From positions 52,260 to 116,259 of the forward strand of contig JAXDML010000010.1 in the NCBI GenBank assembly GCA_034666125.1: DNA of 64,000 bases, given 5' to 3'. Positions 50,903 through 55,611 of this stretch are shown here, in pieces. A program made the translations under genes and the position numbers. The stretch comes from Candidatus Parcubacteria bacterium. GTDB taxonomy: Bacteria > Patescibacteriota > Minisyncoccia > Phycocordibacterales > Phycocordibacteraceae. The notes beneath the pieces were generated by a model, which saw only the letters and a program-made list of their open reading frames with translations, had not been told where the DNA came from and did no database searches. Within the stretch, counting starts at the first letter, position 1, and every line of letters starts with the position of its first letter.

Positions 50903-51679
50903 TTAGCTCTCGATATCAACCTGCGCGGAGTCGCTGTTGTTGTTCTCGTTGCTTTCGCCCACGTCGCGGCCGCTGTCGACCGTGATGCGCGCCGTGCGGT
51001 TGTTGCCCGAGCGGGGCTCCGTGAAGCAGAGGGTGTAGTCCACGCGGTCGCCGGCACCGAGGGAGCGCTGATTCGATACCGTCCGCGAGAGAGCCGGAGA
51101 AGTGGGGAGGTCATATTCGAAGTCCCACTGGCCCGACGTGTTGGTACCGGCGTTGCGGACCTGGAACTGGATGCCTCCGTTCTCACCGTCAGGCACTTCG
51201 TTGCCGCGACGGAAGGAGGATACGCGGTCGCTCGTGCAGTATCCGACGGCGGTGATCTCGACGGTAAGGTCCGCACGGCCGTAGGGTGCCTGGGGCGGTA
51301 CCGTGACCGGTACGGTGACAGTACTCGGCTGGGTGTACGTGACAGTGCGCGTAGTAGCTGCAGGCGCCGCCGTGTATGTGGGAGTTACCGTAACGACGCT
51401 TGTCTCCGTCGACGTCGCGACGGGTTCGAAGGGAACGGATGTCTCCGTGACGACTACTACGGCTTCCGGTTCAGGCGCTTCCTCCGCCGGAGTAAAGACC
51501 GAAGAGAAGGAGACGGCGCCCGTGCCGAGGCGGTTGAGCGCGACGGGTACGAAGCGCGCCGCGTATATGGCGAGCCCGATGCCGATAAGGATAAGGACGA
51601 TGAAGCCCACGATCGCAAGGGCGCTGAGCGCCGCCTGCCGGCGGGGGGTCTTGTCAGTGGTCGTGGTGGTGATTTCCAT
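50903..51679 (-). CDS. Membrane-anchored surface protein with Thr/Val-rich linker and C-terminal beta-sandwich (CARDB-like?) domain
   Basis: TM 'ALAIVGFIVLILIGIGLAIYAA'; TVT-rich linker; C-terminal region of Asn/Gly-rich beta character. Confidence 0.45.
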   Translation of the reverse strand: MEITTTTTDKTPRRQAALSALAIVGFIVLILIGIGLAIYAARFVPVALNRLGTGAVSFSSVFTPAEEAPEPEAVVVVTETSVPFEPVATSTETSVVTVTPTYTAAPAATTRTVTYTQPSTVTVPVTVPPQAPYGRADLTVEITAVGYCTSDRVSSFRRGNEVPDGENGGIQFQVRNAGTNTSGQWDFEYDLPTSPALSRTVSNQRSLGAGDRVDYTLCFTEPRSGNNRTARITVDSGRDVGESNENNNSDSAQVDIES

Positions 51680-51802
51680 AATGGGTACTGTGTACCACGG
51701 CTCGTCTGGCGTGTCAAGAGGTAGGTCGAAGGCCTTGCTTTACGCCATATTTCGGGTTGCTATTAGAGAACCTTGACAAGGGGTCAATAGTAGTGTAAAT
51801 AT

Positions 51803-52480
51803 ATGCAAGACCATATGGCACATCACGGACACAACCAGGCAGGGCACCGGAAAGCTTCCGGGGTCGCGAGCAAGACGTGGGGCAGGAAGTGGAGCTTCCT
51901 GGGCGTTTTCCTGTTCATGCTCTTCGCGACCACGGGGGTCCTTGGCGCGCTTGACCTGCTTCCTGAGGGAGGTACGGTAGCGGTAGAGAACGGGGACTCG
52001 CTCTCGGCTTCGGCGTCGCTCGCCCTCGAGGATACCGAGAAGCCGACGAGGATCGAGATCCCGTCCATCGACCTTTCGGTCACGGTCGCGAATCCGACCA
52101 AGACCGACGTGGCGACGCTCGATGCCGCGCTCCTTAACGGGGTCGTGCGGTACCCGACCTCCGCCGACCTCGGCGAGAAAGGGAACGTCATCATCTTCGG
52201 CCACTCGAGCTACCTGCCCATCGTCCGTAACGAAGCCTTCAAGGCCTTCAACGACATACAGAAACTGAAGAAGGGCGAACGCATCCTCGTCACGGGGAAC
52301 GACCGCACCTATGTCTACGAAGTGGAAAGCGTGAAGGAGGCGGACGCCGAGGAGGACGCTATCCCGCTTTCGGTCACGGGCAGCAAGCTCACCCTTGCGA
52401 CCTGCGACTCCTTCGGGACCAAGTCCGACCGGTTCATCGTCGTCGCCAATCTTGTCGAGAGCTACCCGGCCGGGAACTAA
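51803..52480 (+). CDS. Sortase-family transpeptidase
   Basis: N-terminal TM; 'VIIFGHSSY' His region; 'LTLATCDSFG' TLxTC catalytic Cys motif. Confidence 0.65.
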   Translation: MQDHMAHHGHNQAGHRKASGVASKTWGRKWSFLGVFLFMLFATTGVLGALDLLPEGGTVAVENGDSLSASASLALEDTEKPTRIEIPSIDLSVTVANPTKTDVATLDAALLNGVVRYPTSADLGEKGNVIIFGHSSYLPIVRNEAFKAFNDIQKLKKGERILVTGNDRTYVYEVESVKEADAEEDAIPLSVTGSKLTLATCDSFGTKSDRFIVVANLVESYPAGN

Positions 52481-52627
52481 CGTTCCTGGACGGATAGCTC
52501 GCTGCAAATCAAATGCATCGGGAAGTCGGATCGCGCAAGCGGTAGCGGCCAAAGATCTTCATAAGACCAGAACTGCACGACCTAGTGCAGCCTAAACCTA
52601 AACCCAGCCGCATTGGCGGCACAGCAC

Positions 52628-52633
52628 AAGGAG
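52628..52633 (+). promoter_or_regulatory. Shine-Dalgarno AAGGAG 8 nt upstream of ATG 52641
   Basis: Read directly. Confidence 0.5.
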
Positions 52634-52640
52634 AAGTCCG

Positions 52641-53729
52641 ATGAGGAAACTCGTCAACGCTCTGCTGACGCCGCTGGTGGCGTTCGCTCTGATCATCACT
52701 TCGTTCATCGCCCCGACGGCCAGTCTGGCCCAGTCGTACCGTTCGCTCGACGCCTATCCGGCGATCTGCCGTTCGGTGATGACCGAGCAGCGCATGCACG
52801 GTACCGCCATGTATCGCGGTGCCGACAACCCCGCTCAGCTTGCCGAGGTCATCCAGGCTTCCCTGGATGACGACGAGACGGGCATGACCCGCGTCCGCGC
52901 AAAGCCGGGCGATCAGGCGTTCGCGCGCCCGATCGACTGGTTCTGCACGCTCAAAGCGGTCGACTCGCGGGCGGCCAACCTCAATTCGGTCGCCGACCTG
53001 CCGGCCTATATGCGCACGCTCGTTGCGGCCAACCCGCCGCAGGGCCGCGTGTGGTCGGCATGCATCACGCAGGCGGGGGTTCTCCTCCACTGCATGCTGC
53101 GTCATTACGAACCCAACGAGAAAGTCTGGGTCAATCCCCAGACCGCTGTGGGCGTGATGCAGGGCAACTGCGCGAACACCATCGAAGGGCCCGAAGTCCC
53201 GAACGTCTGCTACGTCTTCGAGCACAATTACTACCAGCAGCGCGACGTGCGGTGGTTCGAAAGGGGCAATACGACCTACGCCCTGGTCTCGACCCACATG
53301 TCCCTCACGGAGCAGCAGATGCGCCGCGTTTACGCGGACGATTGCTACTTCGTCGAGGACGAGACCGGCCGATACAAGCCCCGGCCGGACTGCCCGTTCC
53401 TGTTCTGCCCGCCCGGCAGCACGTGGCCGAACCTCGCGCTTGCGCGGGCGGTCGGGCTGCCGGCCAGCCCGCCGGACACCACGATCCATTATTGGCTGGC
53501 GAACGGAAGAGGCCGCCTGTCGGTCCCGCTGTGGGCGGCGCGCATTCTCGCGCAAGACAATGGGGAGGTTATCCCCTGCGTCTACACCGTCGACTATTTC
53601 GTTTCGGTGGCGGGTTTCGAGCGTTGGAGAGCGTTCGCGCGCTTCGACCGGGCTCGGGGGCCTCAAATTCGGCCGACGCTCCGCGCCGGTCGCTACAGCG
53701 AGGTTTTCCAAGGGCGCGTCAGCTACTAG
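52641..53729 (+). CDS. Secreted Cys/Trp/Tyr-rich protein of unknown function
   Basis: Signal peptide 'LLTPLVAFALIITSFIAPTASLAQS'; 12 Cys; no family recognised. Confidence 0.55.
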   Translation: MRKLVNALLTPLVAFALIITSFIAPTASLAQSYRSLDAYPAICRSVMTEQRMHGTAMYRGADNPAQLAEVIQASLDDDETGMTRVRAKPGDQAFARPIDWFCTLKAVDSRAANLNSVADLPAYMRTLVAANPPQGRVWSACITQAGVLLHCMLRHYEPNEKVWVNPQTAVGVMQGNCANTIEGPEVPNVCYVFEHNYYQQRDVRWFERGNTTYALVSTHMSLTEQQMRRVYADDCYFVEDETGRYKPRPDCPFLFCPPGSTWPNLALARAVGLPASPPDTTIHYWLANGRGRLSVPLWAARILAQDNGEVIPCVYTVDYFVSVAGFERWRAFARFDRARGPQIRPTLRAGRYSEVFQGRVSY

Positions 53730-53859
53730 GTCGCGGTTCTGGCAACGGGGAGGGGGTGGCGGGTCTTCGGATCCGCCACCACCACCTCTTTTTGTACGCC
53801 GCGGAAGCGGCAGAGGAATTCATTATCACAAGATTATCCGAAGCGTTACTTCAAAAAAT

Positions 53860-55611
53860 ATGACCATCGTAAATGACTCAATCGCATACGCAAAGACTCG
53901 CCCGATCGCTGTCGGCGTGTTCACCATTGTCGCCGTACTTGCGGTAGGCTTCGGTATCGGGATGGTGGGCGGCGTAGTGAACGTCGGGAAGGCCGACGCG
54001 TGTTGCGTGCTTCCTCCGACTCCGCCACCCCCACCCCCTCCTCCGCCACCCCCGCCACCCCCACCCCCTCCTCCGCCAATCCCGACTCCGCCGCTACCCC
54101 CGACCCCGCCTGAGGAGGATGAGGGCCGCTGTATCTCTCTTTCCGCTTCCCGTTCCGTTATCACGGCACCCGGTCAGGCAGTCGTCCTTACCTGGTCCAC
54201 CGAAGACGTCGATTCGATCAGCATCAATAACGGCGTCGGCACCGTTTCGCCTACCTCGGGAGGCTCGGTCACCGTGTACCCGACCGGAGATACGACCTAT
54301 GTCGCGACCGTAGAAGGCGGCGACCAGAACGATAACTGCCGTGCAAGCGTACGCCTTGAGACGGTGGTCATCACTGATGAACCTCGCTGCGTCGACCTGT
54401 CGATCAGCAAGAGCCGCATCGAGGAAGGGGAGTCGGTCATTCTTTCCTGGGCGACCCGGAACGCGAGCTCCATCAGCATCAATAACGGCGTCGGTTCCGT
54501 GACTCCGGTATCGAGCGGCTCCGTTACGGTCCGTCCCACCCGCGATACCACGTACGTCGCCACCGTACCCGGCGCACCGTACAACCCGGACTGCGAAGTG
54601 ACCGTCCGTATCGACGAGGATGAGGACGAACCGCGCGAACGCGACCATGATCGCGATGATCATGACCGCGAACGTGAGCGTCCCGAAGTCTTCATCGGTT
54701 CGGAGGAACGCCCGAACGAGCCACCGCTCGCGAGCGTCTACCTCTCCGAGATCCCGTATACCGGCCTTGACCTCGGTCCCGCAGGCACCGTCGTGTACTG
54801 GACCATGCTCGTTCTCTGGAGCGGTGCCGCAGCGTACCTGGTCCTCTTCAACTTCCTGCCGTACCTCTTCCGCCGCGCAGCCACCGACGCCCTCGCCGAG
54901 TCCGGTCATCTGCCCGGATGGGGCCCTGCAGCATCCGCCGCACCTGCCGCGGCACCGATCGCGCGCTCCGCGCCTTCGGCACCCGCACCGGCCGTGCACC
55001 AGGCAGCGCATCGCGCAGCCGTCGTGACCGCGCTCCCGCAGCGCTCCGTGGCGGCAGCACCGGCCCCTGCATCGTCCCGCGTGTACTCGCCCCATGAAGG
55101 ATTCCGCTCCTTCGCCTCGAGCGGCTCGCTCACCATCGACGACATCGTGAAGGGCCTGTCCCGCGAGTCGGGCATGGAACTCGAGATCGCGCCCGTAGCG
55201 CCGAGCGCGCCTGTAGAGGCCATCGCTCCCGTAGCAAAAGCCGCTCCTGCGCCCGCGCGTGCCGTAAAGAACGCGACCGAGTACGCTGACGATATCCCCG
55301 GCTTCATCGAGGCGCTCATCAGCGGCGACCGCGACCATGTCTTCGGGACCGTCCGGAATGTCACGAAGCAGGGCGGCAACTCCGAGGAATTCCTCTCCGA
55401 AGCCGTCTGCGCGCTCGACGACGCGTACCGTGCCCGCACCGAAGGCGCCGACGTGCATCCCGAGATCGCCCGCGTGACGAAAGAGTGCCATACGTCCTTC
55501 CTCGAGAAGCTCGTAGCCTCGCTCGCGACCGCGCTCGACTCGAGCTACTCGGCAGGCATGACCGGCACGAAGCTCGCGCTCACCCGCGCGCTCGCCGTAG
55601 TCAACGGATAA
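53860..55611 (+). CDS. Bitopic/dual-TM surface protein: N-terminal TM, poly-Pro stalk, two Ig-like repeat domains (same type as in 33423..35720), acidic stretch, 'IPYTG' plus TM plus RR segment, Ala/Pro-rich region and C-terminal cytoplasmic domain
   Basis: In-frame ATG 53860 (MTIVNDS) inside the longer artefactual ORF 53440..55611. 'LTWSTEDVDSISINNGVGTVSPTSGGSVTVYPTGDTTYVATV' x2. Confidence 0.55.
   Translation: MTIVNDSIAYAKTRPIAVGVFTIVAVLAVGFGIGMVGGVVNVGKADACCVLPPTPPPPPPPPPPPPPPPPPPPIPTPPLPPTPPEEDEGRCISLSASRSVITAPGQAVVLTWSTEDVDSISINNGVGTVSPTSGGSVTVYPTGDTTYVATVEGGDQNDNCRASVRLETVVITDEPRCVDLSISKSRIEEGESVILSWATRNASSISINNGVGSVTPVSSGSVTVRPTRDTTYVATVPGAPYNPDCEVTVRIDEDEDEPRERDHDRDDHDRERERPEVFIGSEERPNEPPLASVYLSEIPYTGLDLGPAGTVVYWTMLVLWSGAAAYLVLFNFLPYLFRRAATDALAESGHLPGWGPAASAAPAAAPIARSAPSAPAPAVHQAAHRAAVVTALPQRSVAAAPAPASSRVYSPHEGFRSFASSGSLTIDDIVKGLSRESGMELEIAPVAPSAPVEAIAPVAKAAPAPARAVKNATEYADDIPGFIEALISGDRDHVFGTVRNVTKQGGNSEEFLSEAVCALDDAYRARTEGADVHPEIARVTKECHTSFLEKLVASLATALDSSYSAGMTGTKLALTRALAVVNG
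54010..54115 (+). repeat. Poly-Pro-coding CCN tract containing a direct duplication of about 30 bp (ccacccccaccccctcctccgcca x2)
   Basis: Read directly. Confidence 0.7.

Follow-up and report, generated by a model that had tools for sequence, protein, structure and literature searches.

A putative internal sortase signal ahead of a predicted clamp-loader-collar-like domain in a surface protein family of Paceibacteria

The LPXTG-type cell wall sorting signal of Gram-positive surface proteins is a C-terminal tag, consisting of a pentapeptide, a hydrophobic helix and a few positively charged residues, whose membrane remnant is discarded once the sortase has cleaved between Thr and Gly and transferred the ectodomain to peptidoglycan. 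Some sortases are instead genetically tied to a single neighboring substrate that carries its own variant motif, as in SrtB-IsdC or the class GN "marine" sortase TIGR03784 with its target protein. The remnant can also have a function of its own, as with the cleaved sorting-signal peptide ("C-pep") of Streptococcus gordonii, cited in PMC11326707, which is only about 30 residues long and is sensed by a histidine kinase. Here we describe a locus in a Candidatus Parcubacteria bacterium in which a sortase-type signal lies in the middle of the protein chain. Literature searches on sortases in Parcubacteria and the candidate phyla radiation (CPR), on PYTG and on clamp loaders in Patescibacteria found no description of this family, and one paper notes only that more than half of CPR genomes have a sortase (PMC6744442).

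The locus lies in a 64,000-nucleotide stretch of contig JAXDML010000010.1 (assembly GCA_034666125.1, positions 52,260 to 116,259), hereafter the window, in whose coordinates the following features are given.

50903-51679, minus strand: membrane-anchored CARDB-domain protein (258 aa), transcribed divergently from the sortase gene.
51803-52480, plus strand: sortase (225 aa), with a membrane anchor at residues ~30-50 and predicted catalytic residues His134 (52202-52204), Cys201 (52403-52405) and Arg210 (52430-52432).
52641-53729, plus strand: secreted protein (362 aa) with a signal peptide, moderately rich in Cys and Trp (2.8% and 2.2%).
53860-55611, plus strand: target gene (583 aa), the precursor of the putative sortase substrate.
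53860-54000, plus strand: probable N-terminal signal sequence (residues 1-47), with a hydrophobic core at residues 15-36 and ending in ADA|CC.
54001-54120, plus strand: Cys-Cys plus poly-proline stalk (residues 48-87).
54121-54624, plus strand: two Ig-like beta-sandwich domains (residues 88-255), each with a conserved Cys pair, forming the ectodomain.
54742-54765, plus strand: LSEIPYTG (residues 295-302), the sortase-type pentapeptide, with the predicted scissile bond at T301|G302 (54760-54765).
54784-54876, plus strand: second membrane helix (about residues 309-337) with conserved Y313, W314, W320, Y326, F330 and P334, followed by R338-R339 on the cytoplasmic side.
55099-55167, plus strand: conserved cytoplasmic motif GFRSFA..LTIDDIVKGLSRE (residues 414-436), predicted to form short helices.
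55285-55611, plus strand: C-terminal helical domain (residues 476-583) with the predicted fold of clamp-loader (DnaX gamma/tau) domain III, the "collar" domain.

The first-pass annotation had described a sortase with a TLATC motif flanked by a membrane-anchored beta-sandwich protein, a Cys/Trp-rich secreted protein and a membrane protein with a poly-Pro stalk and two Ig domains, in which LSEIPYTG is followed by a hydrophobic helix, RRAA and, unusually, about 270 further residues. This observation is real, and all four genes exist as described, although some details needed correction. The mechanically called target ORF starts at TTG 53440 and overlaps the upstream gene, but the real start is ATG 53860, from which the N terminus is conserved in homologs. 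We find that 281 residues follow G302 and 244 follow RR. The N-terminal hydrophobic segment, evident from the hydropathy profile and as helix 15-36 of the AlphaFold2 model, is followed by a conserved [AVT]-x-A site ahead of the PPCC/Pro stalk in 18 of 18 full-length relatives read by eye, in which signal-peptide n- and h-regions are also seen, and is therefore probably a cleavable signal peptide rather than a permanent anchor, which would make the mature protein type I; this is inferred from the sequences alone. Relatives carry repeated LPPCC(T) units followed by Pro-rich runs at the stalk, and both the stalk and the two Ig-like domains are confirmed by the AlphaFold2 model and Foldseek.

The neighboring sortase clearly belongs to the sortase superfamily but fits none of its defined classes. 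It scores 84.3 bits against a cutoff of 26.6 for Pfam PF04203 (E 7.8e-24) and 46 against 39.35 for TIGR01076, and its closest solved structure is Bacillus anthracis SrtA (2kw8, E 7e-9). His134 (in FGHSSYLP), Cys201 (in TLATC) and Arg210 (in DRF) are invariant in 7 orthologs at 45-58% identity. Basic residues precede the hydrophobic segment WSFLGVFLFMLFATTGVLGAL at residues 30-50, and by the positive-inside rule the catalytic domain is inferred to lie outside the cell. Class assignment by HMM, which had been proposed as a check on the first-pass reading, gave no match above cutoff to any class A-F or GN model in NCBIfam: class E scored 57.7 against 160, SrtD 46.7 against 140, class D 45.9 against 165, class C 42.8 against 160, class F 35.9 against 166 and GN 25.1 against 158. 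Because the enzyme fits no known class, any specificity for PYTG is inferred.

The target protein is not a one-off. We found 142 homologs, those that carry an organism name being Parcubacteria, Paceibacterota, Patescibacteria or Minisyncoccia, and the family profile finds 444 representatives in total at 50% clustering. Scans against Pfam and NCBIfam assigned neither the target nor the secreted protein to a family, and PDB sequence searches with the family profiles found nothing meaningful, with no hits for one profile and a single spurious hit (E 0.36) for another. L295, P299, Y300, T301 and G302 are invariant columns in a 66-sequence alignment at 37-77% identity to the query, and all 157 database members that have an ectodomain keep PxT[GA] directly before the membrane helix. 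The position before Pro is hydrophobic, 7-8 residues separate the motif from the helix, and [RK] predominates at the positions of R338-R339 across the family, as seen in a motif logo over 196 unique sequences. The motif lies in a low-confidence linker of the AlphaFold2 model (pLDDT below 50), taken here to be flexible, and the second helix spans residues 307-350 in that model and about 310-337 by hydropathy. All 128 complete genes in the fetched loci have 225-325 residues after the motif.

These results refute the notion that the motif is a chance xPxTG next to a membrane helix, or that the long ORF is a gene-calling artifact joining two genes. Database gene calls for this family are often N-terminally truncated, with the 100%-identical JGI call being 445 aa rather than 583 aa, which might have pointed to such an artifact. 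However, the ORF is continuous in 128 of 128 complete genes in the fetched loci, the motif columns are invariant down to 37% identity, and the motif is the only xPxTG site followed by a membrane helix in the window.

The sortase and target genes are tightly linked, the sortase staying next to the target gene in every adequately covered long-form locus, including loci whose flanking genes differ. The target lies downstream of the sortase in 64 of 88 sortase-centered loci, and the other 24 appear, from inspection of the locus table by eye, to be cut by a contig end shortly downstream of the sortase; in target-centered metagenome loci with more than 5 kb of upstream sequence, the sortase lies upstream in 15 of 16. 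Because most loci also conserve the housekeeping neighbors gyrB, thrS and dnaE, adjacency alone is weak evidence and could reflect inherited gene order. The argument therefore rests on rearranged and short-form loci (fetched loci are numbered L, family proteins P), which are few and phylogenetically clustered. The pair stays together where the housekeeping flanks are replaced, namely in L078, L156, L065 and L087 (tgt/uvrB/FKBP context), in L057 (helicase/permease context) and in the distant L177. The CARDB protein (39 bits against a cutoff of 22.7, E 1e-9) was found next to the sortase in 83 of 88 loci and moves with the module in rearranged loci, although L057 has no CARDB gene nearby. The secreted protein occupies a fast-evolving slot between sortase and target: tblastn detects it in only 34 of 88 loci, it shows no similarity to the protein in the same position in L078, and L007 and L008 have no slot protein. 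A scan of the module for promoters and terminators was uninformative, with 0 promoters and terminator-like sites at the level expected from shuffles.

Natural short forms, of which there are at least four locus types, lack the ectodomain and also have a mutated or missing motif, whereas, L125 aside, the membrane helix and the cytoplasmic part remain. The motif position reads SYAG in P0188, PYSG in P0189 and TSTG in P0195, there is no motif in P0190 and P0200, and the soluble 194-aa stand-alone form in L125 has no membrane helix at all but retains the GFRSFA block, which is otherwise near-invariant in the family. Where context is available, tblastn finds no sortase at these loci, with L125, L170 and L171-173 running gyrB, short form, thrS, dnaE and L174-175 running tgt, short form, FKBP, although sortase genes elsewhere in these genomes cannot be excluded. 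The N-terminal anchor of the CARDB protein is fused to the short forms of the target. In contrast, distant branches of the long form keep [SA]Q[IV]PYTG while the flanks diverge, and one such member, P0225, keeps AQVPYTG with a generic membrane helix plus RKR and has SpaA_2 and CLIPPER (DUF11) domains in its ectodomain, which are typical of sortase-anchored proteins. Another member, P0170, was considered as an AAA+ relative, but its P-loop belongs to a UvrD-like helicase fragment fused in frame to the end of the second membrane helix, making it a deletion or chimera rather than a link to DnaX.

Taken together, we consider it somewhat more likely than not that the locus is a conserved cell-envelope module of Paceibacteria comprising a membrane-anchored sortase with an intact catalytic triad and a dedicated substrate encoded next to it. 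In this view, the precursor would be exported through Sec and its signal peptide removed, the second helix would stop transfer and hold PYTG at the outer face of the membrane, and Cys201 would attack the T301-G302 bond (within VYLSEIPYTGLDLGP), passing an ectodomain that ends in IPYT to an amine nucleophile, most likely peptidoglycan or lipid II. A separate membrane protein beginning GLDLGP would stay behind, and this remnant probably acts through collar-type protein-protein association, either self-oligomerization or docking to a cytoplasmic partner. Our analysis establishes the anatomy, conservation, gene linkage, co-loss and fold, whereas signal-peptide cleavage, sortase cleavage, the nucleophile and the role of the remnant are inferred. 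Of the two readings offered by the first-pass annotation, an unusual sortase substrate that leaves a cytoplasmic remnant or just a second membrane helix, the comparative evidence favors the first, but without direct evidence of cleavage this interpretation is only partly supported. The remnant is also not incidental, as it is the evolutionarily persistent core of the family. The annotation further held that its idea would fail if the sortase were of a class with an unrelated motif and no other xPYTG substrates existed. A scan of the window and of 1.47 Mb of fetched loci for other xPxT[GAN] proteins with a following membrane helix found only the family itself plus noise, and no window ORF has a canonical C-terminal anchor with a sortase motif; substrates elsewhere in the genome cannot be excluded, but a lack of others would not refute the idea because dedicated one-sortase/one-substrate pairs are an established arrangement.

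Alternatively, the protein may never be cleaved and may work as an intact type I or two-helix membrane protein, a receptor or tether linking the extracellular Ig-like part to the cytoplasmic collar-like domain, with PYTG as a structural juxtamembrane motif and the sortase serving substrates elsewhere in the genome. We regard this as possible but unlikely. In its favor, in the main branch the membrane helix is far more conserved than in ordinary sorting signals, both juxtamembrane flanks are very highly conserved, a large conserved cytoplasmic domain follows, and no Gram_pos_anchor or LPXTG anchor model matches at E <= 0.1. Furthermore, a search for variants with a canonical substrate gene plus a separate cytoplasmic gene found none, as the fusion is never split (128/128), whereas split genes might be expected occasionally if the halves act separately. 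However, the invariant residues are exactly the P, T and G that sortases require, they outlast the surrounding flank and helix sequence in distant branches, and they decay precisely at P and T when the ectodomain is lost. The sortase gene disappears from the same loci and follows the target into new genomic contexts, and no other candidate substrate lies in the module or the window.

It is also conceivable, although we think it doubtful, that the sortase cleaves at PYTG but that the acceptor is not peptidoglycan, with the Ig-like subunits being polymerized into a pilus-like fiber or the ectodomain being ligated to the CARDB protein or the variable secreted protein. The CARDB protein and, in most but not all loci, a secreted protein travel with the pair, the distant P0225 has a SpaA-type pilin domain, and the class C, D and E models all score similarly low, such that a class C-like polymerase role is not excluded. 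Against this notion, these partners are missing from L057 (CARDB) and from L007 and L008 (slot protein), and a lytic transglycosylase gene in the window suggests that a wall exists to anchor to.

If cleavage is confirmed, the rule for recognizing sortase substrates would widen, because genome scans that look only at C termini miss this family of several hundred cluster representatives. One gene would yield a wall-anchored adhesin-like protein and a membrane-anchored cytoplasmic protein in a fixed 1:1 stoichiometry, and there would be a first functional handle on a conserved but unannotated envelope module of CPR bacteria. The clamp-loader-collar fold on a membrane tether is unexpected in its own right and offers a concrete, testable lead on how these organisms organize replication at the membrane. 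A far more speculative reading, which we consider very unlikely but which would be of great interest if true, is that the protein couples the cell envelope to the replication machinery. Each wall-anchoring event would release one membrane-tethered DnaX-domain-III-like protein that docks into or mimics the clamp-loader collar, either tethering the replisome or chromosome to the membrane or tuning replication to surface growth or host contact in these tiny episymbiotic bacteria, and the usual position of the gene between gyrB and dnaE would then be meaningful rather than inherited gene order.

Our findings can be set against each of the closest known systems. Relative to domain III of the bacterial clamp-loader subunits DnaX (gamma/tau), delta and delta', the C-terminal domain has the helical collar fold, but AAA+ ATPase domains I and II with their Walker A/B motifs are absent, the cytoplasmic part consisting of low-complexity linkers, one short helix motif and the collar-like domain, tethered to the membrane by a helix and long linkers. 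At the sequence level, PF12169 (DNA_pol3_gamma3) matches 2 of 29 members below threshold (best E 0.051), Rep_fac_C matches 1 of 29 (E 0.12), and hhalign against Escherichia coli DnaX domain III gives E 0.022 but a probability of only 2%; the family profile does not reach DnaX, and no dnaX was found in the window or the loci.

Relative to the LPXTG-type signal of SrtA substrates, the precursor has a probable N-terminal secretion signal, an Ig-like ectodomain, a pentapeptide with P, T and G fixed, a hydrophobic helix a few residues later and then basic residues (YLSx[IVLM]PYTG, helix, RR here), with a membrane-anchored His/Cys/Arg sortase encoded nearby. It differs in that the signal lies 281 residues from the C terminus, which departs from a defining feature of known sorting signals, the x position is fixed as Tyr, the first position is I/V/L/M/T rather than Leu, and the organism is a CPR bacterium. 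As in dedicated sortase-substrate pairs, one sortase is tied to one neighboring substrate with its own variant motif, and the two are inherited and lost as a unit at the loci examined, yet this sortase reaches the threshold of no defined class and its substrate has a large post-signal cytoplasmic domain. Finally, as with the C-pep of S. gordonii, the membrane-embedded piece left behind after cleavage would have a function of its own inside the cell envelope, but here it would be a protein of about 280 residues with its own folded cytoplasmic domain.

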